Source: an uncultured Chitinophagaceae bacterium
GTDB taxonomy: Bacteria; Bacteroidota; Bacteroidia; Chitinophagales; CAIOSU01
Assembly (NCBI GenBank): GCA_964543705.1
Contig: CAZIZP010000018.1
Span: 12,107 to 76,106 of the forward strand
Length of the DNA: 64,000 nt
Direction of reading: 5' to 3'
Under the pieces are notes generated by a model. That model saw nothing but the letters and a program-made list of their open reading frames with translations. It had not been told where the DNA came from and ran no database searches. Numbering within the stretch: the first letter of the stretch is position 1; every line of letters starts with the position of its first letter. Made by a program: the position numbers and the translations under genes. Positions 7,479 to 63,049 of the stretch are shown piece after piece.

Positions 7479-9710
7479 ATGAATAAATTAATAATGCTTT
7501 TTTCGTCAATAGTTATGTTTTATTGCAATGCCCAGGCACAGTTTCTTTTCAACAGAATAAATACCGTTGAAGTTAAAGACACTAATGATGTATTGTATAA
7601 ATTTCCCTGGGTGGGAGGCCTAAATAACCCGCAGTTTTCTTCGGCCGATTTAAATAATGATGGCATAAAAGATTTGGTTGTGTTTAATAAAACCTATACG
7701 GTAAATAACGACCAGGTATTAACTTTTATTAATGGCTCTAATGGTTATGAATATGCTCCCGAATATCAGGCTGGCTTTCCTTATACCGAAATCGATTCTC
7801 CGAAAATTGAGTTTTTTATGCTGATGTATGATTACAACTGCGATGGTATAGAAGATGTTTTCTCATGTACGCCCGGCTACATTCAGGCTTATAAAGGCCG
7901 CTATGATGCCAACAATAAACTTACTTTCGATTACCAAACCTTTTTACAGTTTAATTCCTTTTCGGGCCTGCTGAATATTTTTGTTTCGTCTATTGATATT
8001 CCGGCCATAGTAGATGTAAATGGCGATGGAGATTTAGACGTGCTTACCTTTAATATTTTTGGTTTTGTTATTGAATACTACGAAAATCAGTCGGTAGAAC
8101 TTACCGGCACTTGTGGCGATTCTCTTGTATATGAACTTGTTGATGATTGCTGGGGCGACATTTTTGAAGATGGCTTGCGCAAAGCCGTTCAGTTTAAAGA
8201 TACCTGCGGAACTTTAACAGGCAAAGGGCAACCCCGCCATTCGGGTTCAACTGTTTTGTCGTTTGATGTTGATGCCGATGGAGATAAAGATGTGATGTTG
8301 GGAGATATTTCTTTTACCAACCTGAATATGGTAATTAATGGCGGTACTGCCGATTCGGCAAGAGGCGTTGCTCAGGATACTATTTTCCCATTCTACGACA
8401 CTTCTATTAATGTTCCTATTTTTCCGGTGGGCTTTTATATAGATGTAACCAACGATGGCAGAAATGATTTAATTGTTGCACCCAATACTCCAAAAAATTC
8501 TGAAAATTATTATTGTGCCTGGTTATACGAAAACTATAGTTCCACAGCCGAAGATTCTTTCAGACTTGTAAAAAAGAATTTTCTGGTAGAAGATATGATT
8601 GATGTAGGAGAGGGGGCGCATCCTGTTTTTGTAGATATTAATCAAGATGGTTTAATGGATTTTGTAGTGGGCAATTATGGCTATTATACTACAGGTGTAT
8701 TTTATAAATCGGGATTAGCCTATTTTCAGAATACAGGAACTGCTACCAACCCTTCCTTTAAACTAATCGACCGTGACTTATTCGGTCTTTCAACCCTAAA
8801 CTTTGTAGCCCTGGCACCTGCCTTTGGCGATTTAGATGGCGATGGCGATTTAGATATGATTTTAGGTGAAGAAAGTGGCGAATTACATTATTTTACCAAT
8901 ACTGCCGGTGCAGGTAATTTTATGAATTTCACCTTAACTACGCCCACTTATTTCAGAATAGATATTGGGCAATACAGCACCCCTGTGCTTTATGATGTAA
9001 ATGCTGATGGCTTGTTAGATTTAGTAGTGGGCGAGAGAAGTGGTAATCTGAATTATTTTGTTAACAAGGGTAGTAGTGGTGCAGCCACTTTCTCTCAAAA
9101 TCCTGATAACAGTTTCTTTGGTGAAGTAGATGTTCGCGAGCCGGGCTTAATTACAGGTTTTAGTGCCCCGGTATTTTCAACCTTAGATAGTACGGGTAAA
9201 GTGTATTTGCTTTCCGGCAGCGAATCGAAAGGTATATTGGTATATGACTTTGATGTAAGCAAAGCCGATTCAGGTGTCTTTACCAAATTGTTTGAACGCT
9301 ATTCAAACATAAGAGAAGGCGAAAGAACCAACCTTACCTTGGCTGATATTACCAATGATGGAAAACTGGAAATGCTTACCGGAAACTATAAAGGGGGTGT
9401 GGGTTTCTTTAGCCAAACCGATTCTATTGCCGAACCCCCGTCATCGGTAGCTAATACCGTTTTAAATTTTGTAGATATATATCCCAACCCAACCAGTCAT
9501 AATTTATTTGTAAGGTTTAAAGATATTCCTCAACAAAACTGGGGCATTAATATGTATAATATTTTAGGTAGCGAGGTGTTTACACAAAAAGCTATTGTTA
9601 CACCCGGAACTACTTTGGTAATTAATACTGAAACCTTTGAGAAAGGCATTTATTTCTTAGAGCTTAGCAGCAACAACTACAAAAAAACATACAAAGTCGT
9701 TTTGCAATAA
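7479..9710 (+). CDS. T9SS type A cargo protein with FG-GAP/VCBS-like repeats
   Basis: Signal peptide; repeated DxNxDGxxD motifs; C-terminal YPNPT...GIYFLEL sorting domain. Confidence 0.88.
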   Translation: MNKLIMLFSSIVMFYCNAQAQFLFNRINTVEVKDTNDVLYKFPWVGGLNNPQFSSADLNNDGIKDLVVFNKTYTVNNDQVLTFINGSNGYEYAPEYQAGFPYTEIDSPKIEFFMLMYDYNCDGIEDVFSCTPGYIQAYKGRYDANNKLTFDYQTFLQFNSFSGLLNIFVSSIDIPAIVDVNGDGDLDVLTFNIFGFVIEYYENQSVELTGTCGDSLVYELVDDCWGDIFEDGLRKAVQFKDTCGTLTGKGQPRHSGSTVLSFDVDADGDKDVMLGDISFTNLNMVINGGTADSARGVAQDTIFPFYDTSINVPIFPVGFYIDVTNDGRNDLIVAPNTPKNSENYYCAWLYENYSSTAEDSFRLVKKNFLVEDMIDVGEGAHPVFVDINQDGLMDFVVGNYGYYTTGVFYKSGLAYFQNTGTATNPSFKLIDRDLFGLSTLNFVALAPAFGDLDGDGDLDMILGEESGELHYFTNTAGAGNFMNFTLTTPTYFRIDIGQYSTPVLYDVNADGLLDLVVGERSGNLNYFVNKGSSGAATFSQNPDNSFFGEVDVREPGLITGFSAPVFSTLDSTGKVYLLSGSESKGILVYDFDVSKADSGVFTKLFERYSNIREGERTNLTLADITNDGKLEMLTGNYKGGVGFFSQTDSIAEPPSSVANTVLNFVDIYPNPTSHNLFVRFKDIPQQNWGINMYNILGSEVFTQKAIVTPGTTLVINTETFEKGIYFLELSSNNYKKTYKVVLQ

Positions 9711-9716
9711 TTAATG
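9639..9716 (+). repeat. 78-bp direct repeat, copy 1 (last ~72 nt of the T9SS gene plus flank)
   Basis: GAGAAAGGCATTTATTTCTTAG...AAAGTCGTTTTGCAATAATTAATG matches 10341-10418 with 5 mismatches. Confidence 0.9.
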
Positions 9717-9931
9717 TTAACAGACAAAAATTTTTTTTCAAGTTTTATACTGGAATTAGTTTTTTAAATAAACATTTAATTGTGCTTTTACTATTGGAAT
9801 ACTTTGGTCAATAAAACTTTATTCCCCACCAGCCAGTCTGTAGCTATACATTGAAACGTTCGCGATTAGTGCTATCTATCGAAAACGCTCATTTATTTAG
9901 TTTCAATTTTTTTGTAAACTGAAAATAGGAC

Positions 9932-10225
9932 AAAAATCGTTTTTTGCTGCATTGCTAAAATTTATAATAAAGAAAAAATCGTTTTTTGGTGCATTGTTAA
10001 AACTTGCAACGTATTAAAAATAGGTTTTTGGTACATTCCAAAAATTCGGAATAGGGCAAAAATTGTTTTTTAGTGCATTCCAAAAATTCGGAATAGGGCA
10101 AAAATTGTTTTTTGGTACATTCCAAAAACTCGGAATGGGGTAAAAATCGTTTTTTGTTGCGTTCTGAAAACTCGGAATGGAATAAAAATCGTTTTTCGGT
10201 GTATTCCAAAAACTCGGAATGAGGT
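9932..10225. repeat. Degenerate 42-nt tandem array (7 units plus a decayed flank to ~10260)
   Basis: Units start at 9932, 9974, 10016, 10058, 10100, 10142 and 10184; consensus ~AAAAATCGTTTTTTGGTGCATTCCAAAAATTCGGAATAGGGC; no indels. Confidence 0.9.
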
Positions 10226-10340
10226 AAAAATTAGTTATTGGTTCGTTCTGAATAATAAGAAAAGGGTAGTGGCATACTTGTGGTAATGTGAGGTCTTGTT
10301 AAAAATAATAATTTTGGCAACGGACGATTCGACCAGTTAG

Positions 10341-10418
10341 GAGAAAGGCATTTATTTCTTAGCGTTTAGCGGCAATAACTACAGAAAAACATACAAAGTC
10401 GTTTTGCAATAATTAATG
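10341..10418 (+). repeat. 78-bp direct repeat, copy 2
   Basis: 73/78 identical to 9639-9716. Confidence 0.9.
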
Positions 10419-10439
10419 GTAAAATAATCAATCAGGTTT

Positions 10440-12377
10440 TTACTGTGCTTTTTCATACTCGGCACTGGCCGCTTCCCATTTTTCTATAGCGGCTGTTTGT
10501 TGTTTTTTCAGTGCTTCATATTTCTCGAAAAAATCGGGCTGCTGGGTTAGTTTTTGGTATTGTTCAGCATTTTTCAATTGCTCATCAATGGCAGCAATTT
10601 CTTTATCAATTTTGGCTACTTCTGCCTCTGCTTTTTCAACCGCATTTTTAAGGCGTTTCAGTTCTTTTTCGTCTTCTTTTTTCTTTTCGTATTCGGTATT
10701 ATTTGCTGAAACTTTTTTAATGGTGTTTTTCTGTGCGGCTTCTTTTTCTAATTCTAATGCACGAAAACTTTCCATTTGTTTTTTATCTAAAAACTCATAA
10801 ATATCGCCCAGATGTTCTTTAATTTCTCCGGGTAAAAATTCAAACACTTTATTGGTAAGCCCCTGTAAAAATTCACGGTCGTGCGATACTACTATAATAG
10901 TGCCTTCAAAGGCTTGCATCGCCTGCTTCAACACATCTTTAGCAATCATATCTAAGTGGTTGGTAGGTTCATCGAGAATTAAGAAGTTCAAGGGCTGCAA
11001 TAATAATTTTGCCATTGCCAATCTCGATTTTTCACCACCCGAAAGCACTTTCACTTTTTTATACACATCATCGCCACTGAAAAGAAAAGCACCTAAAAGC
11101 GTTCTTAAATTACCTTCATAATCTGCTGGTGCCGAATGTTCCATTTCTTCCAAAACGGTATTGTTGGGGTGCAGGTTTTCGGTTTGGTGCTGTGCATAGT
11201 AACCCATTAAAACATTATGCCCCAGTTTAATGGTGCCATCATAGGTTAGGTCTCCCGCAATCATGCGCGAAAGGGTAGTTTTACCCATACCGTTTTTACC
11301 TACAAAAGCAATTTTATCGCCACGGTCTATTTCAAAATTGGCGTTATTAATTACATGCTTTTCGCCATAGCTTTTGTTTACGCCTGTTCCTGAAACTACC
11401 GTAACACCTGTTTGTGGCGCTTTCGGAAAACGAATTTTCATGGCTACTACATCTTCTTCCTCAATTTCAATTCTATCTATTTTATCGAGCTTTTTTATGA
11501 GCGATTGCGCAAAAGTGGCTTTCGATGCTTTTGCCCTAAATCGGTCTATATTTCTTTGCAGTTGTGCAATTTCACGCTCTTGGTTTTTTTGAGCGTTTTG
11601 CAACATTTCTTTTCTCTCTGCACGTTGCTCAATATATTTTGAATAAGAGGCGCGGTAGTCATCAATTTCCCCACGCGAAACTTCAATAGTGCGGTTGGTA
11701 ATGGCATCTAAAAATGCTTTATCGTGCGATACCAGCATAATAGCCCCCGGGTATTCTTTCAAAAACGTTTCGAGCCATGTTACCGATTCAATATCTAAGT
11801 GGTTGGTAGGTTCGTCTAATAAAATAAGGTCGGGCTTTTGTAAAAGAATTTTTGCCAGTTCAATACGCATTTGCCAGCCCCCGCTAAATGCCTTTACCGA
11901 TTTACTGAAATCGGCAGTGGTAAAACCTAAACCTCTCAACACTTTTTCAATTTGCTCATCGAGGCTGTAGCCACCTAAATGGCTCAATTGTGTCTCTTTC
12001 TCGCCAAAATCTTCAATCAGCTTCATGTAATCATCGCTCTCGTAATCGGTGCGGGTTTCCAGTTCATGTTGTAAGCGGGCAATTTCTTTTTCCAGTTCCA
12101 GCACTTTGTTAAAAGCGGTGCGGGTTTCTTCGTAAACCGTTTTATCTGAATTGGTAAACAATTCCTGCGGTAGATAACCTATGGTAGTGCCTTTCGGCAT
12201 AGAAACATCAAATTCATCGGCTTTTTGTATGCCAATTAAAATTTTCAGAAGGGTAGATTTTCCGGCACCGTTTCTTCCGGTTAAGCCTATTTTATCGGTT
12301 TCGTTAATTCTGAAGGAAACATCGTTGAACATCGTGCGCCCGCCAAAATGCAGCGCCAGTTTATTAATCATTATCAT
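10440..12377 (-). CDS. ABC-F family ATP-binding protein
   Basis: Two ABC cassettes (GRNGAGKST/FSGGWQMR; GKNGMGKTT/LSGGEKSR), DEPTNHLD, C-terminal coiled coil, no TM segments. Confidence 0.93.
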   Translation of the reverse strand: MIMINKLALHFGGRTMFNDVSFRINETDKIGLTGRNGAGKSTLLKILIGIQKADEFDVSMPKGTTIGYLPQELFTNSDKTVYEETRTAFNKVLELEKEIARLQHELETRTDYESDDYMKLIEDFGEKETQLSHLGGYSLDEQIEKVLRGLGFTTADFSKSVKAFSGGWQMRIELAKILLQKPDLILLDEPTNHLDIESVTWLETFLKEYPGAIMLVSHDKAFLDAITNRTIEVSRGEIDDYRASYSKYIEQRAERKEMLQNAQKNQEREIAQLQRNIDRFRAKASKATFAQSLIKKLDKIDRIEIEEEDVVAMKIRFPKAPQTGVTVVSGTGVNKSYGEKHVINNANFEIDRGDKIAFVGKNGMGKTTLSRMIAGDLTYDGTIKLGHNVLMGYYAQHQTENLHPNNTVLEEMEHSAPADYEGNLRTLLGAFLFSGDDVYKKVKVLSGGEKSRLAMAKLLLQPLNFLILDEPTNHLDMIAKDVLKQAMQAFEGTIIVVSHDREFLQGLTNKVFEFLPGEIKEHLGDIYEFLDKKQMESFRALELEKEAAQKNTIKKVSANNTEYEKKKEDEKELKRLKNAVEKAEAEVAKIDKEIAAIDEQLKNAEQYQKLTQQPDFFEKYEALKKQQTAAIEKWEAASAEYEKAQ

Positions 12378-51904: not shown

Positions 51905-54172
51905 TTACTGAACAATAAACCTTTTTTGAACCGTGCCTGCTTTGCCTGCTTCAATCGTTAAAATATAAACCCCTTTTGCATATGGGCTTACATTTATCGG
52001 TTTAGCATATTTACCTGCTTCTTTTTCTAAAACCTCATGGGTTATGGTTTCGCCTAGTATATTGGTTATTTTAAGTGAAACCGGTTCTTTCAGGTCGGGT
52101 AAATACACTTCAGCTTTTAACACACTACTGGCAGGGTTAGGATACAACATTACCGATGAAGCATTTAGTAAATTATCTGATGGCTCTGAAGTAATTAGCG
52201 CATTGGGTTTTCTAATGTTAGAACGGGTAGTATTTACCGTTGCTCTTACAGGCGAGCAGGAAATGCCCCAGTTTACATCTACTACATATTCTGCATCGGG
52301 AAAAGAACTATAAGATATATCGGAGAAAGTAGCGTTGGTGCCCGGAATATTGCCAATAGGGAAGAAGTCGCCATTGGCAAAAGCATCTCTATTCATATTA
52401 AAGGATATAACCGGATTAGGCTGACCTTCTATTTGGTAAAAAGTCCATTGAAAATTACCATTACCTAAGTTTTGCAGGTGTATGGTATTATGAAAAGGGC
52501 TTAATGCCGATTCAGCACCGCAGGTATCTATAATAGACATTTTGTAGCGATAAGAAGTAGTGTTGGGGTTAGCGTCATAATCGTGATACTCGCTTAAAGA
52601 ATCGAAAGGAATAGTGGCAATTTTGGTATAGATATTAGAAGTGGTTTCGCGATAAATACAAAAGCTGTCTATTAAGCTGGTGGGCTGCTTTTCCCAGATA
52701 ATGATGTTGTGGGTGGAAGCAGTATCAACTGTTACTAAGCAAATATCAATACCCGGTGGTTGCAAGGTGGCAATAGTAAGGGTGGTAGCATAGCTAAAAC
52801 CACATTGTGGGGTAAATGCTTTTACCGAAATAGTGCCTCCGCTGCCATCAGATACTACAGTAATAGAAGTGCTATCGCTGCTGCCGGTCCACCCGCTGGG
52901 CAATGTCCATTCATATTTTGTCGCTCCGGGTATGGGGGTAATAGTATAGGTTTGCAAGGTGCCCCTGCATTCGGCATAGGGTAAACCTAAAATAGTATCG
53001 GGTTGTGGGGAAAGGCAGTTGTAAAGGCGGGCAATGCGGTTTCTCGCTACGCCATCGAAAGAAGTAAATCTTCCGCCTACCAAAACTTTATCATCGTTTT
53101 GTAAGGTTATGGCTAAAATATCATCATCGGCTCCGCTACCGGGATTAAAAACAGTATCTACATATCCATCGGCAGTTATTTTAGCCAATCTGTTTCTCGG
53201 AATATTATAATACTGCGTAAAGCTGCCTCCCGCAAAAAAACTGCTGTCTTCCAGTAGTTTTAAAGCATAAACCGGCAGGTTGGCACCGGGGTTTTGGCGA
53301 AAAGTAAAATCTATAGTGCCGTTAGCTCTGGTACGCACTACATAGCCTACCGTAGAGCCATTGTAAAAGGTAAATTCACCGCCTAGCATTATTTTACCAT
53401 TAGGCAATAACTGAGAGGTGTAAATATTAGAGCCTGCGCCCCCAATGCCGGGGTTTAGGGTTACATCGGGCGAGCCATCGGTATTGGCCCTTGCAAGCCG
53501 AAAACCCTGCACCCCAAAAAACGAAGTAAATGAGCCGGCAAGTAGCACTTTTCCATCGGGTTGTAGCGAAATCGTTTCAACCGAACCGTTTAAGCCATTC
53601 AGTGTGTTAAAAGTGGTGTCAATATCGCCATTGCTATGCAGGCGGGTTAAGTGTCCGTAAGGCAGGTTGTTTATGGTGGTATGATTACCTCCAATAATTA
53701 ATTTACCATCGGGCTGTAGTATTACATTTTTAAGACCCCCAAAAAAGTCGGGTTGTTTAAAAGTGGTATCTCTTAATCCATTAGGTAACAAGCGCATTAA
53801 ATAATATAAAGTGTCATTATTACCATCTATAAAACCATAATCACCGGCTATTAATATCTTGTTATCGGGCTGAACCAATATTTTATAGAGTCTGTTTTCA
53901 AAATCTCTAAATTGGTAATTAAAGGCATTAAATAAGAAACTGGTATCTGTAGAGCCGTCAGGGTTAAGTCTGGTAAGAAGGTTGGCAGGTGTGCCATTAA
54001 AATTAAAAAAATCTCCGCCCACTAAAATTTTTCCATCGGGTTGTACTGCAATCGCTCTTATGTTGTTATCAGCCCCTGTGCCAATATCGAAACTTAAATC
54101 TAAAGCTCCCGGCTGGGCTTTTAGTTGTAAAAAAAGGCAACTACATATAATCGCCAAAAAAATATTTCTCAT
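51905..54172 (-). CDS. T9SS type A cargo with delta-60 (DUF5122-type) repeats and PKD-like domain
   Basis: Repeated LQPDGKILxGGxF...RLxxDGxxDxxF; YEWTLPSGW; LYPNPAS...GVYIL. Confidence 0.88.
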   Translation of the reverse strand: MRNIFLAIICSCLFLQLKAQPGALDLSFDIGTGADNNIRAIAVQPDGKILVGGDFFNFNGTPANLLTRLNPDGSTDTSFLFNAFNYQFRDFENRLYKILVQPDNKILIAGDYGFIDGNNDTLYYLMRLLPNGLRDTTFKQPDFFGGLKNVILQPDGKLIIGGNHTTINNLPYGHLTRLHSNGDIDTTFNTLNGLNGSVETISLQPDGKVLLAGSFTSFFGVQGFRLARANTDGSPDVTLNPGIGGAGSNIYTSQLLPNGKIMLGGEFTFYNGSTVGYVVRTRANGTIDFTFRQNPGANLPVYALKLLEDSSFFAGGSFTQYYNIPRNRLAKITADGYVDTVFNPGSGADDDILAITLQNDDKVLVGGRFTSFDGVARNRIARLYNCLSPQPDTILGLPYAECRGTLQTYTITPIPGATKYEWTLPSGWTGSSDSTSITVVSDGSGGTISVKAFTPQCGFSYATTLTIATLQPPGIDICLVTVDTASTHNIIIWEKQPTSLIDSFCIYRETTSNIYTKIATIPFDSLSEYHDYDANPNTTSYRYKMSIIDTCGAESALSPFHNTIHLQNLGNGNFQWTFYQIEGQPNPVISFNMNRDAFANGDFFPIGNIPGTNATFSDISYSSFPDAEYVVDVNWGISCSPVRATVNTTRSNIRKPNALITSEPSDNLLNASSVMLYPNPASSVLKAEVYLPDLKEPVSLKITNILGETITHEVLEKEAGKYAKPINVSPYAKGVYILTIEAGKAGTVQKRFIVQ

Positions 54173-54283: not shown

Positions 54284-54354
54284 GGGGTAGAAGTGAAATC
54301 TTAAATTCTAAGTCCTAAACAAATTCAAAACACAAAACTCTAAATCCTAAACCC

Positions 54355-54506
54355 TAAATCCTAAACAAATTCAAAAATCGAAATTCAAAATTCAAAAACT
54401 ATTACCCCTCTCTGTCATTCTGTCCACGATAGCTAATGGGAGAAACTTTCCAATAAATATCCCCAACAAAACAAAGATGCCTACGGCATGACAAAATACT
54501 CTAAAC
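54355..54506 (+). repeat. ~150-bp direct repeat, copy A (heptamer tract + REP-like TGTCAT...ATGACA element)
   Basis: Near-identical to 55219-55372 in the same orientation. Confidence 0.9.
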
Positions 54507-54583
54507 AAATTCAAAAATCGAAATTCAAAATTCAAAAATCTAAACATTAAAACCATAGAAACAATATAACTACTCAAACAAAA

Positions 54584-54961
54584 TCACATTTCCTCGAATA
54601 TTATGCACTGTAACCCCGGAATTTTAGCAAAAGCTTTGTCTGCTGTAAGAAGAGGTATGTTTTGAGTAATTGCAGTGGCAGCTATAATAGCATCGGGTAT
54701 TTTTATTTTACGATGTTGCTTAATCGAAATCGCACAATCGCCAATAGTTTGGTCATACATTACTTTTCTTTGAAATGAAAGAATTTCTTTCACCAAATTC
54801 TGTTGTTTTCGGTCAATCAAATTGTTTCCCAACAGTTCAATTTCAGTAATAAAAGAGTAAATAATTTCTTTATTAAAAATAGCCTCAGCTGCACTTCGCT
54901 TGCCTTCAAGTAAATAAACAAACAAGTTAGTATCTAGCATTATTCTATCAATCCCATTCAT
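54584..54961 (-). CDS. vapC: PIN-domain toxin (VapC-like)
   Basis: MLDTNLFVY, ITEIELL, KIPDAIIAATA, LLTADKAF. Confidence 0.9.
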   Translation of the reverse strand: MNGIDRIMLDTNLFVYLLEGKRSAAEAIFNKEIIYSFITEIELLGNNLIDRKQQNLVKEILSFQRKVMYDQTIGDCAISIKQHRKIKIPDAIIAATAITQNIPLLTADKAFAKIPGLQCIIFEEM

Positions 54962-55130
54962 TTCTTACTTTTTTTTGGTAGGCTAAACCATCGCCATAAA
55001 CACCCTTTAATTTGCCTAAATACTTAAATGGGTCGAATTGTTTTTTTGTTTTTCTGTTAGCATTCAGCACCTTATCTATTTTACGCTTTATTTCTTCTGC
55101 CGAATCAGTTTTTTTAATGTAAACTGTCAT
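54948..55130 (-). CDS. Putative antitoxin partner of the PIN toxin
   Basis: 60 aa, basic, overlaps the toxin start by 14 nt; ends YQKKVRNEWD, a pattern typical of small PIN-associated antitoxins. Confidence 0.75.
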   Translation of the reverse strand: MTVYIKKTDSAEEIKRKIDKVLNANRKTKKQFDPFKYLGKLKGVYGDGLAYQKKVRNEWD

Positions 55131-55218
55131 ATTTTAAATGTTTAAGCTAAGATAAACAAAATCCAAAACCCCAAACTTAAAACTCTAAACCCAAAACCCA
55201 AAACCCAAAACCCTAAAC

Positions 55219-55372
55219 TCTAAATCCTAAACAAATTCAAAATTCAAAAATCGAAATTCAAAAACCATTACCCCTCTCTGTCATTCTGTCCACGATAGCT
55301 ATAGGGAGAAACTTTCCAATAAATATCCCCAATAAAACAAAGATGCCTCCGGCATGACAAAATACTCTAAAC
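55219..55372 (+). repeat. ~150-bp direct repeat, copy B
   Basis: See copy A. Confidence 0.9.
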
Positions 55373-55462
55373 CCAAAACTCCAAACTCTAAACTCTAAAC
55401 TCCAAACTAATGGCTAACGGCTCTGCCAAAAACTGAAAACTGATGACTGATTACTGAAAACT
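55373..55462. repeat. Degenerate heptamer tract (AAACTCC/AAACTCT...AACTGAA/AACTGAT/GACTGAT/TACTGAA)
   Basis: 7-nt periodicity read directly. Confidence 0.7.
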
Positions 55463-55502: not shown

Positions 55503-55554
55503 TTCACAACATCCTGAGGCACTTTCACAACATCCTGGGGCACTTTCACAACAT
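55503..55554. repeat. 21-nt tandem repeat, 2.5 copies
   Basis: TTCACAACATCCTGAGGCACT / TTCACAACATCCTGGGGCACT / TTCACAACAT. Confidence 0.85.
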
Positions 55555-55661: not shown

Positions 55662-55704
55662 TTACATAGTAAACTATTAATTAACATTTTTGACCTACTT
55701 AAAA

Positions 55705-56004
55705 ATGATTAAGAAAAACAAGAAACCTAAAATGATTTCTGTTAGCGGCATCCAATCGTTTCAGCCTGTAAATCTTAAAAAACTTGCCAATTCAGTTAAT
55801 GGCAAAAATTCGCCCCTGTCGCAGCGCCAGGCCGAAATACTGCAACTGGCAGCCAATGGCTATACCAGCCCTAAAATTGCCGCCCATATTTATTTAAGTA
55901 AAGACACCATAGAAGGCTACCGGAAAGATATTTTGCGTAAGCTGAAAGCCGCCAACATAACCCATGCCGTAGCCATTGCCCTTAGAAATAAATGGATTGA
56001 ATAA
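55705..56004 (+). CDS. Stand-alone LuxR/NarL-type HTH regulator
   Basis: LSQRQAEILQLAANGYTSPKIAAHIYLSKDTIEGYRKDILRKLKAANITHAVAIAL; no receiver domain. Confidence 0.9.
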   Translation: MIKKNKKPKMISVSGIQSFQPVNLKKLANSVNGKNSPLSQRQAEILQLAANGYTSPKIAAHIYLSKDTIEGYRKDILRKLKAANITHAVAIALRNKWIE

Positions 56005-56191: not shown

Positions 56192-56671
56192 ATGACCTGC
56201 CACGGCTTCGACATACCGCCTCATTTAATAATGGTGGCCCTGCACACCAGCAAAACCGCTGCCGTGGTGGGTAGTTTTTCTTCGGAAGGGGATGAAACAG
56301 CCTTCCCAAAAACGGGAATACAAGCGGAACAAGTTTCGGAGGCCTTCCCAAAAACGGGAATAGGAGCGGAACACGTTTCGGAAGCCTTCCCAAAAACGGG
56401 AATAGGAGCGGAACACGTTTCGGAGGCCTTCCCAAAATCGGGAACCCGGGCGGAACACGTTTCGGAGGCCTTCCCAAAATCGGGAACCCGGGCGGAACAC
56501 GTTTCGGAGGCCTTCCCAAAACCAGGAACCCGAGCGGAACACGTTTCGGAAGCCTTCCCAAAAACGGGAACCCAAGCGGAACACGTTTCGGGGGCCTTCC
56601 CAAAATCGGAAACACTATTCAGTTACTTATTTTTTCACCCAATAAAATCAAAACACTATGTTCAACCTTGA
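56192..56671 (+). CDS. Possible 14-aa repeat protein read through the 42-nt array (coding status uncertain)
   Basis: A-rich upstream context and overlap with the next start; repeats of EHVSEAFPKxGxxA. Two minus-strand frames are also open. Confidence 0.35.
   Translation: MTCHGFDIPPHLIMVALHTSKTAAVVGSFSSEGDETAFPKTGIQAEQVSEAFPKTGIGAEHVSEAFPKTGIGAEHVSEAFPKSGTRAEHVSEAFPKSGTRAEHVSEAFPKPGTRAEHVSEAFPKTGTQAEHVSGAFPKSETLFSYLFFHPIKSKHYVQP
56300..56613. repeat. 42-nt tandem array, 7 units plus a partial, each with two short palindromes
   Basis: Units at 56300, 56342, 56384, 56426, 56468, 56510, 56552 and 56594 (partial); consensus GCCTTCCCAAAAACGGGAA-nnnn-GCGGAACACGTTTCGGAG. Confidence 0.95.
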
Positions 56672-57617
56672 AAAATTAGTCGAAGATTTTTTTGATGATA
56701 AAAATCTTTCTGACACCAACCTGCAAGCTTTTACCGATGATGCCTTACTGCGCTTATCTATACCCGATAACAATCCCGGAGGGATTTACAGCCAGTTAAT
56801 AACCGATACCCTTACAAAATACAGTGCTTTTTTTGGTAAAATGACCAATTTGGCTTCTAAAAAAGCCATTAGCGAAGGCTTAACCATTACTATGGAAGCC
56901 ACTAAAAAAGACGTTATAGATTATTTAAGCGATTTGCAAAACCTGGTGAAGTTTAAGTTTAATGAAACCTCGGCTACCTACCAGGAGTTTTATCCGCAAG
57001 GCATGAGCGAATACCACGATGCCAACCTGCCACAGTTGCCCACCTTGCTGCAACGGTATGTAACAGCCGCTACTGCCCATTTGGTAAGCAGCAATGCTGC
57101 CGAAGTAACCGCCTTAACCGATAAAGTAGGGGCATTTAATACCGCCCGAACAGCACAACTTACCGCATTTGGCGAGGTAGAAAACCTGCAAACCGGCAGG
57201 CGACAAGACCGCAAGGCACTTACCCTGCAACTAACTACCAACCTGCTTACCATAGCTATTAATAACCTCGAAAACCCCGATAACTTTAATAACTACTACA
57301 ACCCCAGCTACCTGCCGCTTACCGATAAAGCATTTAGCGTAAATGGCGTTATTGCGCCCGGTGCTATTATAAGTGCCGTAGCCGAAGGCACCATAATCCG
57401 CAGCAGCACGCTTACCCTGTATAACCAAGGCACCGATGAATTAATATTTGCCATAAGCGACCGCCCCGAATTTATAGATGAAGTAAACCGGCTAACCATA
57501 GCCCCCGGCAACAGCCAGCGTATAGAAGGCACCCTGCCCGTGTTTGAACAATATTTCCTGAACATCCAAAACCCACACCCCACCCAAAACGGCAAGTGGA
57601 AGGTGGTAGTGGGGTAG
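56658..57617 (+). CDS. Uncharacterised protein: helical N-terminal domain + beta-rich C-terminal domain, no signal peptide
   Basis: Amphipathic helices (aa ~10-205, FYPQGMSEY motif), then a beta-strand-like tail; A-rich start context. Confidence 0.85.
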   Translation: MFNLEKLVEDFFDDKNLSDTNLQAFTDDALLRLSIPDNNPGGIYSQLITDTLTKYSAFFGKMTNLASKKAISEGLTITMEATKKDVIDYLSDLQNLVKFKFNETSATYQEFYPQGMSEYHDANLPQLPTLLQRYVTAATAHLVSSNAAEVTALTDKVGAFNTARTAQLTAFGEVENLQTGRRQDRKALTLQLTTNLLTIAINNLENPDNFNNYYNPSYLPLTDKAFSVNGVIAPGAIISAVAEGTIIRSSTLTLYNQGTDELIFAISDRPEFIDEVNRLTIAPGNSQRIEGTLPVFEQYFLNIQNPHPTQNGKWKVVVG

Positions 57618-58831: not shown

Positions 58832-61800
58832 ATGAATAAGCTAACACTGTTTATACACCGCAATAGAAAAAGCATTTTTATCCTGCTTTTATGCACACTG
58901 CTCAGCAGCATGGGTATTGCCCAGCCAGGTGCTATTGATCTATCTTTTAACCCAGGCTCAGGGGCGAATGATGAAGTAAAGTCAATAAGCCTACAGCAAG
59001 ACGGGAAAATCATTATTGCAGGCTATTTTACTTCGTATAGAGGGGTTGGGCGAAATCGTGTTGCACGAGTTAATAATGATGGAACAATTGATAACACCTT
59101 TAATCTAGGGACAGGTGCAAATAGCAATATTTGGTCTACATCAATACAACCTGATGGGAAAATCCTTATCGGGGGGGAGTTCACTAGTTACAACGGCACA
59201 GCACGAAATTATATCGCTCGTTTAAATGCTGACGGTAGCATTGACCCTTCATTTAATACTGGTAGCGGTCCAGGCAACTTTGTAACTAGTATTTCCTTAC
59301 AATCTGATGGTAAAATTATTATTGTAGGAGGATTTTCTAGTTTTAATGGTACATCCCGAAACGGCATAGCCCGATTAAATTCTGATGGAAGTTTAGATGC
59401 AACTTTTAATCCAGGTACTGGTGTAAATTTCACTATTTGGACTTCATCAATACAGGCTGATGGGAAAATCATAATCGGGGGAAGTTTCACTTCATTCAAT
59501 GGTGTTGGAAGAATTCGAGTTGCTCGGCTTAATACGAATGGTAGTCTTGATAATACATTTAATCCTGGTTTAGGAGCAGAACATTCTTTCAACCCAGCTT
59601 ATATTTTAACAACTTTAATACAACCGGATGGAAAAATAATAATAGGAGGCTATTTTAACAGCTACAACGGTACGGCACGCAATTATATCACACGCTTGAA
59701 TGCAAATGGCAGTCTCGATGCCACTTTCAATACAGGTACCGGGACGGATTGGCAAGTTAATACCACCGCCCTGCAGCCCGATGGTAAGATCATTATTGGA
59801 GGACAGTTTACCAGCTACAACGGCACAGCACGCAGCCGCATAGCCCGCCTGAATGCCAATGGCACCCTTGATGCCACATTCAACTCAACAGGGACGGGTT
59901 TTATTAATGCAACTGCGCTACAGCCCGATGGGAAAATCCTTATCGGAGGCTCTTTCACCAGCTACAACGGCACAGCACGTAACCGTGTTGCCAGAGTGCT
60001 AAACCCTCCCCCCTACCAAGCCACTTTCACCGCCATGAGCACCGGCAGCGCCACCTGGTGTGCCGGAGAAACCCGCACCGTAAGCGTAACCGTAACCAAC
60101 ATCGGCAGCGCCACTTGGACCAACAGCGGGCCCGATGTAAACATTGGTGCTACCTGGAGCAATGATTTAAGCTACCCATGGCGCGTAAATGCCAATAACC
60201 TGGCACCCGGCCAAAGCCAAACCTACAACATTACCGTAACTGCCCCGGCAAGCCCCGGCAGCTACACCCTGCAATTTGATGTAGTAAAAGAAGGCGATTG
60301 CTGGTTTGGCAATAACAACGGCAGTTGCGGCCCCGGCAATGCAGCTTATGTAAGCGCAGCGCAAACCGTAAGCGGTAGCATCGCCACCGCCACCCTCACA
60401 GGCGGCAGCATCTGCCCACCCGCCACTGGGGCTGATGTTACCTTGGCTGCTTCAGAAACAGGCGCAAACTACCAACTCTACAAAACCATTTTTAAAGACG
60501 ATTTTGAAACCTACACGGGCTGGAGCACCTATGGCACAGGCGTGGTGGCGCAATCCTCAGCACAGGCGCAGCAGGGCACTTTCTCCCTCCACAAAACCAC
60601 CAACGGAGACCCCAACGGAGGCATCAAAGCCATTGGGCAAACGGTGGGCAATACCTTTTTGTTTGAGGGGTGGATGTTACAGGCTTCAGGCACACAAAGC
60701 AACCGCATAGCCTTTCTTGATGGCAGCGGCAATGGTTATAGTTTAAGGGTTACCAATACAACCATAGGAGTAGAAAGAAGAAATGCAGGCGTTGCCACCG
60801 TTATCAGCAGCAATGTAGCATGGGCACGTCCTGCAGGTGTTTGGTTCCGCTTTGTGTTCACCGGCAATGGCAACGGCACCTACACTTTAAATATTTATGA
60901 TATTGCAGGCACTTTACAAGCCAGCGTAACCAGCAATACCGATAATACATTCAATAGCTTTACCCAAATTGCGGTAGTAGGCGGCAACGATTATCATGTA
61001 GATAATATCCGTTTATCTATACCACAAGGCGGTGCCGTTGCAGGCACAGGCAGCCCTTTGGTGTGGAGCAATATACCTGTAGGCGAGTATCAGGTGTATA
61101 GTGGGGTTACAAGCAATTGCTCAAGAGTATTAAGCAGTGTGGCTACCGTAGAACAACTTACCGCCAGCACCTGGTATTTAGATGCCGATAATGATAACTA
61201 CTATACAACCACCCAAAGTGCCTGCACCAGCCCGGGCGCGGGTTGGACCAGCACCTTACCCGCTGGCGGCAGTGGCGATTGCGATGATAACAATGCAGCC
61301 ATTAACCCCGGGGCTACAGAAATTTGCGGCAACAGCATAGATGAAGATTGCAGTGGCAGCGATTTAACCTGCCCAACCTTCACCTGGACCGGCAACTCCA
61401 ATACCCTTTGGAATGAAAGCGGCAACTGGAGTGGCGGCAATATACCCACCGCTACCGATAATGCCATTATACCCGATGTAAGCGGGGGCAGTGGTAATTT
61501 CCCAACCATTAATACCGCAGTAAGCATTGCCGATATTACCATAGCAACCAACGCCACCTTAGATATTTCTGCTAACCAGTCGCTTACCGTAAGCGGAGTA
61601 TTAACCAATAATGGCACCATAACGGTAGCCAGCGGAGGCAGCTTAGTACAGGAAGATGGCAGCACTTTGGCAGGTAGCGGCACTTATATAGTAGAAAGAG
61701 CCATTACTGCAGGGCAACGCTTCATCGGCTCGCCCATAGAAAGCCACAGTGTAAACGGCTTTGGCATAGCACCTAGTGGCACCAACGGAGGGCAAATAAT

Positions 61801-63049
61801 ACCTGTAACCAACCCGCTATACCGTTGTAATGTAGATTCTGTATCGGCCACCTCGCCTTATGGCAACATATTAGAACTAATAGAAAATGCTGCGGTAATA
61901 GATAATTGTGCCCAATCACTATGGCATGTAAAATCTACCGGCAACCTTACCGATGCCAGAGGCTATGCCGTAAACGCAGCCGCCAACACTACCTTAACCT
62001 TTACCGGCACGGTAAACAACGATGATAAAACCTATGGCCCATTAGGCCGCCAGACAGGCAGCTTAGACCAATGGAATGGTAACAACACCACTACAAGAGG
62101 CTGGCACTTGGTAAGCAACCCCTACCCAAGCCCCATTACCTTTACCAATGGCAGCTTAGGCGGCAGCTTCGATAATCAAATACAATTATTCGATGGCAGC
62201 AGCTTTACACCGTTTACTTTAAACAGCGGACCGGTAACCGTAGCCGTAGGGCAGGGCTTTCAGATAAGAGTAGCTACTGAAGGCGGCAGCGGCACCTTCT
62301 CGGTAAACAATAATATGCGTGTAGCGGGCAACCCTACTTTTTATCGTCAGCAATCGCCATTCAGCCAATATGTAGATATAACGCTAAGCAATAGCCAATA
62401 CAGCGATAAATCTACTGTGTACTTTGAAGACGATGCTACTACAGCATTCGATTCAAAATACGATGCCAACCGATTGTTTGGTGCAAAACACATTCCATTG
62501 CTCTACACTAAGGAAACCAATGGAGAATACCTGGCCTATAATGCTTTGCCGTTATTAGAAGCGGGCAATACACAAACCGTACCTGTAGGCATATATGATG
62601 GCAGTACCCCGGGCGAGTTCACTTTAAGCTTTGATGGTATTACTACCTTAAATGCAACGGTAATGTTAGAAGACTTAAAGCTAAATACCCTACAACAAGT
62701 AACCGAAGGCAGCACTTACACCTTCACTACCGAAGCAGGTGATAGCAGAGACAGATTCTTGTTACACTTTGAAGCCAATTTGGCTACAGGAATAGCATTC
62801 TCAACTAAAGAAGGGGTAAGGCTATTCCCTAATCCTACCACAGGCGAAACCAATTTAATATTGAATGAAAACCACGGTTACAGCAAAGCAGTAATTGTAG
62901 ATATTTCAGGCAGAATGGTTCAAACCTACGAGTTGAATAAAACCAACACTAAAGAGACCTTGAACACTGCATCATTGAATAATGGTATTTATTTTATTCA
63001 GCTAACAGGCAGCAATAGTAACCAAACGTTGAAACTGATTAAGCAGTAA
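58832..63049 (+). CDS. Large modular T9SS type A cargo: delta-60 repeats, Ig-like, lectin-like, putative metal-binding (DCDD...DEDC) motif
   Basis: Seven LQPDGKIIIGG repeats; WYLDADNDNY...GDCDDNNAAINPGATEICGNSIDEDC; LFPNPTT...NGIYFIQL. Confidence 0.9.
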   Translation: MNKLTLFIHRNRKSIFILLLCTLLSSMGIAQPGAIDLSFNPGSGANDEVKSISLQQDGKIIIAGYFTSYRGVGRNRVARVNNDGTIDNTFNLGTGANSNIWSTSIQPDGKILIGGEFTSYNGTARNYIARLNADGSIDPSFNTGSGPGNFVTSISLQSDGKIIIVGGFSSFNGTSRNGIARLNSDGSLDATFNPGTGVNFTIWTSSIQADGKIIIGGSFTSFNGVGRIRVARLNTNGSLDNTFNPGLGAEHSFNPAYILTTLIQPDGKIIIGGYFNSYNGTARNYITRLNANGSLDATFNTGTGTDWQVNTTALQPDGKIIIGGQFTSYNGTARSRIARLNANGTLDATFNSTGTGFINATALQPDGKILIGGSFTSYNGTARNRVARVLNPPPYQATFTAMSTGSATWCAGETRTVSVTVTNIGSATWTNSGPDVNIGATWSNDLSYPWRVNANNLAPGQSQTYNITVTAPASPGSYTLQFDVVKEGDCWFGNNNGSCGPGNAAYVSAAQTVSGSIATATLTGGSICPPATGADVTLAASETGANYQLYKTIFKDDFETYTGWSTYGTGVVAQSSAQAQQGTFSLHKTTNGDPNGGIKAIGQTVGNTFLFEGWMLQASGTQSNRIAFLDGSGNGYSLRVTNTTIGVERRNAGVATVISSNVAWARPAGVWFRFVFTGNGNGTYTLNIYDIAGTLQASVTSNTDNTFNSFTQIAVVGGNDYHVDNIRLSIPQGGAVAGTGSPLVWSNIPVGEYQVYSGVTSNCSRVLSSVATVEQLTASTWYLDADNDNYYTTTQSACTSPGAGWTSTLPAGGSGDCDDNNAAINPGATEICGNSIDEDCSGSDLTCPTFTWTGNSNTLWNESGNWSGGNIPTATDNAIIPDVSGGSGNFPTINTAVSIADITIATNATLDISANQSLTVSGVLTNNGTITVASGGSLVQEDGSTLAGSGTYIVERAITAGQRFIGSPIESHSVNGFGIAPSGTNGGQIIPVTNPLYRCNVDSVSATSPYGNILELIENAAVIDNCAQSLWHVKSTGNLTDARGYAVNAAANTTLTFTGTVNNDDKTYGPLGRQTGSLDQWNGNNTTTRGWHLVSNPYPSPITFTNGSLGGSFDNQIQLFDGSSFTPFTLNSGPVTVAVGQGFQIRVATEGGSGTFSVNNNMRVAGNPTFYRQQSPFSQYVDITLSNSQYSDKSTVYFEDDATTAFDSKYDANRLFGAKHIPLLYTKETNGEYLAYNALPLLEAGNTQTVPVGIYDGSTPGEFTLSFDGITTLNATVMLEDLKLNTLQQVTEGSTYTFTTEAGDSRDRFLLHFEANLATGIAFSTKEGVRLFPNPTTGETNLILNENHGYSKAVIVDISGRMVQTYELNKTNTKETLNTASLNNGIYFIQLTGSNSNQTLKLIKQ

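Follow-up and report, generated by a model that had tools for sequence, protein, structure and literature searches.

Location and setting of array 1

The stretch of DNA analysed here, called the window, comprises 64,000 nt of the genome (3.7 Mb, 55 contigs) of an uncultured Chitinophagaceae bacterium. A tandem repeat of 42-nt units, array 1, lies in a 730-nt gap between the 3′ ends of two convergent genes. The features of this region are listed below.

7479–9710, plus strand: gene of an FG-GAP protein with a T9SS sorting tail (Pfam)
9639–9720, plus strand: left copy of an 82-nt direct repeat, the genuine 3′ end of the FG-GAP/T9SS-tail gene with 10 additional nt
9721–10340, no strand assigned: 620-nt insert consisting of an AT-rich lead-in of about 200 nt, array 1 and an 80-nt tail
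9826–9928, plus strand: segment of the lead-in with weak similarity (70–73%, blastn) to segments of contigs C11 and C25
9924–10260, no strand assigned: array 1, about eight head-to-tail 42-nt units, delimited by Tandem Repeats Finder (TRF), the register layout and the dyad centres
10341–10422, plus strand: right-hand copy of this 82-nt repeat, a duplicate of the gene end with no function, 18 nt from the stop codon of the ABC-F gene
10440–12377, minus strand: ABC-F ATPase gene (Pfam)

The two copies of the direct repeat are 93% identical and have a spacing of 702 nt (repeat search). As they bracket the insert, the array-bearing segment is considered to have arrived as an insertion that duplicated target DNA. 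No terminal inverted repeats were detectable around array 1. The segment of C11 that resembles the lead-in lies 145 nt upstream of a different 21/42-nt array.

The array is absent from the corresponding position in relatives. In the nearest genome (G002), the ABC-F orthologue is 90% identical, no array is found beside it, and synteny ends at its stop codon. Nor is there an array beside the ABC-F gene of the next genome (78% identical), where synteny likewise breaks off at this gene. A DNA search among 40 relatives retrieved array-1-like DNA from none of them, only from the window's own genome. There, a sister array on contig C1 (C1:174905-175290) aligns with array 1 over 361 nt without a gap, with 79% identity. 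The characteristic end units of array 1, two at its start and one at its end, recur in the sister. The flanks are unrelated, and homology stops at the ends of the array (window 9910–10270; blastn). Since the end units are kept between unrelated flanks, whole arrays have evidently been copied.

Repeat unit and coding status

TRF reports a period of 42, 7.3 copies, 79% matches and 0% indels at 9924–10231. The unit starts found by the repeat search are separated by seven successive spacings of exactly 42 nt each, which confirms the indel-free register described in a first-pass annotation of this DNA. The divergent units are those at the ends, namely the first two and the last. When the unit is numbered from AATAGGG, it contains a dyad B centred at 15.5 and a dyad A centred at 36.5, and the distance between the centres is exactly 21.0 nt either way round the repeat. 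Dyad A is CATTCC-N8-GGAATG, with six pairs and an 8-nt loop; its last base is variable (CATTCC-N8-GGAAT followed by G or A). Dyad B is CAAAAA-TCGT-TTTTTG, with six pairs and a 4-nt loop. Both halves of the unit thus show dyad symmetry, as had been noticed in the first pass.

Array 1 is non-coding. Each of the six frames carries at least one stop. In the frame that reads AFQKFGIG, the three stops noted previously (10015, 10021 and 10141) are all present, and additional ones occur at 10165, 10183, 10225 and 10249. No open reading frame contains the array, and no frame is open through it into a longer gene.

Several other candidate identities were rejected. A CRISPR-like locus would have unique spacers, and all 42 nt of the unit repeat. 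No terminator-like site was found in array 1. A role as a sigma-70 promoter was dismissed, with one promoter-like site against 3.5 expected. At gathering thresholds, the Rfam matches in the window amount to a single tRNA, with none for the arrays.

Array 2 and its kinship to array 1

A second array of the same period occurs in the window, upstream of a gene encoding a 319-residue protein, p319.

56192–56671, plus strand: 159-aa open frame over array 2, most likely spurious
56300–56613, no strand assigned: array 2, period 42, 7.5 copies, 92% matches, 0% indels (TRF)
56658–57617, plus strand: p319 gene (319 aa), beginning 45 nt after array 2

The dyads of array 2 are TTCCC-N6-GGGAA (A) and CGGAAC-AC-GTTTCG (B), with centres placed as in array 1, and both dyad centres coincide in the best ungapped alignment of the two arrays. 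The consensus units agree at 22/42 positions in the best of 84 registrations (p ≈ 0.004 against shuffles). However, the best pairwise match among the 42-nt arrays of the genome has a median of 19 and a 90th percentile of 23. The value of 22/42 therefore falls within the bulk of the comparisons, and arrays 1 and 2 are not specially close. The nearest kin of array 1 are the arrays of C1 (38/42) and C24 (28/42), followed by those of C2, C47 and C52. The arrays of C24 and C33 have dyad A as in array 1 but CAGACGTCTG at the B centre. The proposed homology between array 1 and the array at 56.3 kb is upheld by the common period and the shared A dyad, but not by any particular pairwise resemblance. 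Dyad A places the two in one superfamily, as distant relatives.

The 159-aa open frame has no credible Pfam match. Across array 2, stops are missing from five of the six frames, which makes the openness a composition effect, and the differences between its units are mostly non-synonymous.

Other features of this part of the window were recorded. A 21-nt repeat, TTCACAACATCCTGAGGCACT, is present at 55503–55554 (2.5 copies, 96% matches). It is followed at a distance of about 135 nt by a gene for a small LuxR/GerE-type regulator (55690–56004), which lies shortly before array 2. Heptamer microsatellites (AAACCCT, AAATTCA, CAAAACC, ACTCTAA, AAAACTG) form a mosaic from 54335 to 55462. The mosaic includes two near-duplicate blocks, at about 54335–54540 and 55157–55400, on either side of a PIN-domain toxin gene (54584–54961, minus strand, Pfam E = 2.4e-14); an overlapping upstream ORF of 60 aa is the likely antitoxin. 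The region of array 2 and p319 is flanked by genes of two large T9SS cargo proteins with DUF5122 beta-propeller repeats (58832–63049 and 51905–54172). T9SS cargo genes also adjoin several arrays in other genomes (L073, L074, L084, L088).

Repeat landscape of the genome

The genome contains 64 loci with periods of 21, 41/42, 63, 84 or 126, among them about 40 arrays of period 42. The TRF rows for repeats of at least 19 nt with at least 2.5 copies, over the whole genome, are distributed as follows.

Period 21: 48 rows
Period 42: 40 rows
Period 41: 8 rows
Period 63: 8 rows
Period 84: 7 rows
Period 99: 4 rows
Period 126: 3 rows
Period 198: 3 rows
Every other period: at most 2 rows each

The arrays occupy mosaic intergenic zones that have many short modules in common, and several are located at contig ends. 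Open frames that contain arrays stop within tens of nucleotides of them, indicating that such frames are by-products of the repeat. A separate set has a period of 41 (C4:129543-130025, C23:51-576, C21:1313-1579 and C27:24386-24647), with up to 12.8 copies and 87–92% matches. Irrespective of length, the commonest tandem-repeat periods genome-wide are 7 (114 TRF rows) and 14 (113 rows). Heptamer repeats have been described in Bacteroidetes, cyanobacteria and Beggiatoaceae (PMC4679880).

Dyad geometry and covariation

The spacing of the two dyads recurs in the family much more often than expected by chance. Of the 33 arrays that have an A dyad, 17 have their best B dyad at a distance of exactly 21.0 nt from it, and the two best dyads show this distance in 20/39 arrays of this genome. 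The same distance was found in 22 of 50 distinct arrays linked to p319 in metagenomes, versus 1.6% of shuffles. In these metagenome arrays, the two halves of the unit have no sequence relation to each other. Across arrays, dyad A is conserved (ATTC..AAAA..GAAT), and dyad B is free in sequence and fixed in position. An exact 42-nt period was observed in about 130 arrays from several phyla, mostly without indels. A working definition of the 42-bp double-dyad array was drawn from these traits: an exact 42-nt period, non-coding status, dyads 21.0 nt apart and the motif ATTC-N-AAAA-N-GAAT. Array 1 displays all of them, and it matches the A-dyad motif at 18/18 specified positions. A description as two dyads separated by two helical turns, with centres at a distance of 21.0 nt, is preferable to the spacing of four helical turns emphasized in the first-pass annotation.

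Covariation was examined in 28 arrays from at least five phyla, against 500 shuffles. The proportion of paired cells was 74.5%, compared with 59.8 ± 1.5% in shuffles, and 68 cells were changed on both sides, compared with 30.5. The covariation score was 0.369 instead of 0.138. None of the 500 shuffles reached the observed value for any of the three measures. When the partner was slid by 1–3 columns, pairing dropped to 31–48%. All six pairs of dyad B show two-sided changes. This result gives strong support, rather than proof, that the pairing within the dyads has been conserved, as the shuffles ignore relatedness among arrays.

For array 1 and its C1 sister taken alone (15 units), 86.7% of the cells pair, and a swap from C:G to G:C is seen at one pair in the positionally homologous first units. 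The covariation is not significant in this comparison, 38 of the 500 shuffles being as high. The compensatory changes that had been suggested as a check are thus evident across the 28 arrays but not between the two sisters. Likewise, the proposal that constraint acts on spacing and dyad structure rather than on a protein is supported for the family but not as an ongoing constraint on the copy at array 1.

Occurrence in other genomes

A pattern of two consecutive A dyads in the 42-nt register, with 23 specified bases, was searched for in one genome per species; the estimated number of chance matches is well under one. It was found at 25 loci in metagenome-assembled genomes (MAGs) labelled by their depositors as Chitinophagales, Bacteroidia/Bacteroidota, Ignavibacteria, Calditrichaceae, Verrucomicrobia/Akkermansiaceae and Candidatus Brocadia. 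TRF detected 22 period-42 arrays at these loci, of which 21 are indel-free. Their A dyad is conserved and the B palindrome is different in each.

Arrays of period 21 and 42 are also present in samples of complete genomes of the same order. None was found in draft genomes of the same genus and family, which may reflect assembly. A phage origin was rejected, as neither the array pattern nor p319 homologues occur in 2.9 million viral contigs. An incomplete search of the literature returned no description of a 42-bp double-palindrome array, which does not by itself make the family undescribed.

The p319 genes downstream of the arrays

The p319 protein has no Pfam or PHROG match. Its homologues adjoin A-type arrays in a Calditrichaceae MAG and in a Verrucomicrobia MAG. 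Among 400 sampled Bacteroidota genomes, p319 was present in only two others, one with 5 copies and the other with 3. Each of these eight genes has a 42-nt array 80–210 nt upstream, and the arrays all differ in sequence. A survey of metagenomes yielded 59 homologue loci with at least 300 nt of upstream sequence. A tandem array ends within 450 nt upstream of the p319 start in 55 of them, with a period of 42 in 53 cases, 43 in one and 21 in one. One of the p319 leader arrays (L103, genome G128) has the unit type of array 1, that is, an A dyad and a B dyad made of an A-run and a T-run.

In the genome of the window, a weak p319 paralogue on C2 has a 41-nt array upstream. Two 315-aa paralogues (G000 C35:21962-22909 and C37:23009-23956; L105, L106) are 67% identical to each other and have no Pfam match. 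Each is preceded by a long 21-nt array, and both appear to be distantly related to p319 (hhalign probability 72%, E = 3.5e-5). This pair is the only common gene family to emerge beside the other arrays of the genome, the remaining neighbours being ordinary enzymes. About 60 of the 64 loci with 21/42-nt arrays are not beside a p319-like gene; the family may therefore have other roles, or none.

Four loci of G128 (L097, L099, L101, L103) contain a p319 paralogue and a 42-nt array that are flanked on both sides by runs of heptamer repeats. The runs are inverted at L097 (AGCAAGA downstream, TTCTTGC upstream), and upstream of the array there is a conserved segment of about 60 nt. This arrangement hints at a mobile cassette.

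The gap between array and start codon is 33–70 nt in many p319 loci and 33–55 nt in some. Where it is 33–55 nt, the promoter may lie within the array, or transcription may run through the array. The −7 box of Bacteroidota (TAnnTTTG) is not recurrent between array and start codon (7/41 loci).

An AlphaFold2 model of p319 (pLDDT 88) consists of an N-terminal bundle, in which two helices are about 55 residues long, and a jelly roll at the C-terminus, the latter predicted to be closest to PirA, Ena pilus subunits and cupins. The protein is acidic (pI about 4.8; family median about 5). With such a charge, and a predicted fold without any nucleic-acid-binding match, p319 is unlikely to be the protein that binds the arrays. 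No feature of the protein suggests that it binds DNA, and the array is therefore more likely to act in cis on the gene than to be targeted by the gene product. The possibility that p319 has a conserved downstream partner gene was also considered and rejected, as the 285-aa gene of the window has no homologue in 80 metagenome loci.

Array 2 is placed upstream of a p319-family gene; array 1 is not, and no p319-like sequence was found near it. With no gene start nearby, inside an insertion and absent from relatives, array 1 is an orphan member of the family. The identity between its units (79%) is at the low end for its family, and it is probably a decaying stray copy of the 42-bp arrays.

Proposed action of the arrays

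With respect to the direction of p319, the arrays occur either way round (14 versus 11 by linker polarity, 12 versus 5 by loop polarity). Among the mismatches of the motif strand, A·C (42) is commoner than G·T (14), and wobble pairs show no strand bias. The two orientations and the unbiased wobble pairs speak against an RNA that is specific to one strand. As A and B alternate in equal steps of 21 nt, an inverted array keeps its geometry, which fits an orientation-independent action at the DNA level. Stems that are free in sequence yet conserve their pairing are more readily explained by a hairpin or cruciform, or by a structure-reading protein, than by many sequence-specific binders.

The explanation we prefer, with moderate confidence, is that array 1 is a non-coding, displaced copy of the 42-bp double-dyad family, which would act at the DNA level and usually sits upstream of p319. 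In this scheme, the usual position of the arrays would be 35–400 nt upstream of p319-family genes, array 2 being such a copy. The evenly spaced, alternating dyads would form a phased, orientation-independent scaffold beside a promoter. The scaffold could fold into hairpins or cruciforms, bind a structure-reading protein, or both. Whole arrays would be copied to new sites now and then. Array 1 would have come to rest in its 620-nt insert between convergent genes, with no gene start to serve, and would now be drifting, with a unit identity of 79%. The data directly show the non-coding status, the period and geometry of the dyads, their covariation, the spread of the family over phyla, its link to p319, and the insert and sister copy of array 1; the DNA-level action, the promoter-proximal role and the loss of function of array 1 are inferred.

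It is also possible, and suggested only tentatively, that array and p319 form a module that spreads horizontally. The array would be a cis element read by structure and not by sequence, with dyads that form hairpins or cruciforms in a phase of two helical turns. It would control or mobilise p319, and orphans like array 1 would be traces left by the module. The range of such a module would cover the FCB and PVC groups (Bacteroidota, Ignavibacteriota, Calditrichota, Verrucomicrobiota and Planctomycetota).

Alternative explanations and known systems

The closest known kinds of repeats are REP/BIME clusters and minisatellites borne by MITEs. The REP clusters and BIME-2 of enterobacteria, with REPs tagged by GTAG or CGTC, are likewise short extragenic palindromes with a regular intergenic spacing, and tandem head-to-tail reiteration of single REPs or dimers has been described (PMC3733652, PMC2817692). 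A first alternative is that array 1 is a REP/BIME-like cluster, the single-stranded hairpins of which are read, copied and amplified by a REP-associated tyrosine transposase (RAYT), and that it is selfish DNA with at most side effects on its neighbours. The likeness is one of structure, found in mosaic zones among other repeats in a genome that has RAYT genes and REPs. The unit of array 1 is indeed a short imperfect palindrome able to form a stem-loop, and covariation with free stem sequence is what base pairing of REPs would produce. Three intact RAYT genes are present in the genome (G000 C3:203644-204009, C20:46740-46958 and C12:77228-77446; L011, L013, L014), above the curated cut-off of NCBIfam NF047646, each with flanking inverted hairpin repeats; a broken fourth copy was noted on C24. 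Of 47 sites with copies of these REPs, 21 are no more than 600 nt from a 21/42-nt array, versus 1.2 expected, and GTAG or CGTC is found beside the stems of some other arrays of the genome (C4:25548; C24/C6/C23).

However, neither array 1 nor array 2 shows any similarity to the hairpins beside the RAYT genes. The GTAG/CGTC tag is absent from all units of array 1 and of its C1 sister; a single GTAG occurs near array 1, in the flank just beyond the last unit. In contrast to BIMEs, in which orientation alternates, the units are all direct, with a fixed 42-bp period and two unlike dyads at a distance of 21 bp. At 33 external array loci, the search for a RAYT was negative. The sequence of dyad A is conserved across phyla, whereas REPs are normally lineage-specific, and the tight link to one gene family, p319, is left unexplained. 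A RAYT-driven origin is thus considered unlikely.

The second known kind is represented by the BrickBuilt repeats (23 nt) and the 41-nt repeats of MITE464/PgRS in Porphyromonas gingivalis (PMC4596501). They form tandem arrays without spacers in a member of the Bacteroidota, always intergenic, with tens per genome and with a lead-in and a tail, and promoter activity in both directions has been reported for them (PMC4596501). They are species-specific and reside inside MITEs with IS5-type terminal inverted repeats (PMC4596501). Array 1 instead lies between two direct copies of an 82-nt piece of target DNA, and nothing beyond the array itself recurs in its sister; the 42-bp family extends over several phyla, with a defined geometry of two dyads. 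In sum, array 1 lacks the features that define REPs and MITEs, namely the tag, a cognate RAYT, the alternating orientation and the terminal inverted repeats.

Two further systems bear comparison. The MIRU minisatellites of Mycobacterium tuberculosis are tandem repeats of 40–100 bp at tens of dispersed intergenic loci, with variable copy number. They carry small ORFs that overlap neighbouring genes and are not known outside one genus, nor are they known to have a double-dyad structure. The sopC centromere of plasmid F consists of 12 tandem units of 43 bp, each with an inverted repeat bound by SopB. Together with plasmid iterons, it exemplifies DNA-level protein-binding arrays made of spacer-less tandem units of about four helical turns, each containing a dyad. 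In contrast to these systems, no partition (ParA/ParB) or replication gene lies beside array 1 or 2, about 40 arrays of many sequence types are present per chromosome, and the acidic p319 is predicted to have neither a winged-helix nor a ParB-like fold.

The arrays could also be transcribed RNA elements, such as leaders, 3′ UTRs or sRNA precursors, that control stability, termination or translation and are perhaps cut into 42-nt pieces. Leader arrays that end 33–70 nt before the p319 start may lie within the 5′ UTR, and array 1 is situated where the 3′ UTRs of the two convergent genes would run. The single strands fold better than shuffles (z = −4.8 for the plus strand and −3.75 for the minus strand), and the covariation of the stems would suit an RNA. 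These points are countered by the occurrence of both orientations relative to p319, the absence of an excess of G·U pairs on the sense or motif strand, and the lack of Rfam matches and terminator-like sites. Moreover, in the predicted minimum-energy fold the units pair with one another over long distances instead of forming hairpins of their own, which any palindrome array would be expected to do. An RNA role appears quite unlikely.

Neutral filler made by slippage, in which the regular period is a by-product of the gain and loss of whole units, was considered as well. Array 1 is degenerate, located between gene ends and absent from the nearest relatives, the genome is rich in heptamer and other simple repeats, and several arrays end contigs as unstable repeats do. 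Slippage alone does not account for the dominance of periods 21, 42, 63 and 84 among repeats of at least 19 nt. Neutrality explains neither the 42-nt period and A dyad in five phyla, nor the covariation of the dyads, nor the 42-nt arrays at 53/59 p319 loci. As an account of the family, it is very improbable. Present-day neutrality of array 1 by itself is compatible with the preferred explanation.

Finally, a protein repeat of 14 residues per unit, with array 1 as a pseudogene, is effectively refuted: although the period is divisible by three and array 2 lies inside an open frame, array 1 has stops in all frames, the differences in array 2 are mostly non-synonymous, no credible Pfam match exists, and in 14 of the 55 p319-linked arrays none of the three sense frames is free of stops. 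The homologous arrays, 10 of which (out of the same 55) have stops in all six frames, are thus not always contained in intact reading frames with synonymous-biased variation, the observation that the first-pass annotation had named as evidence against its own proposal.

Significance

Array 1 alone is of modest importance, since it is probably a decaying stray. The family to which it belongs explains the abundance of 21-, 42-, 63- and 84-bp repeats in this genome, which break assemblies. Intergenic repeats of bacteria are usually lineage-specific and poorly understood. Here, an exact 42-bp geometry with two dyads is found across at least five phyla, with a sequence that is mostly free. The tie to p319, at about 93% of the loci examined, provides a testable handle on the role of the arrays, as their copy number and orientation can be varied in front of a single gene.
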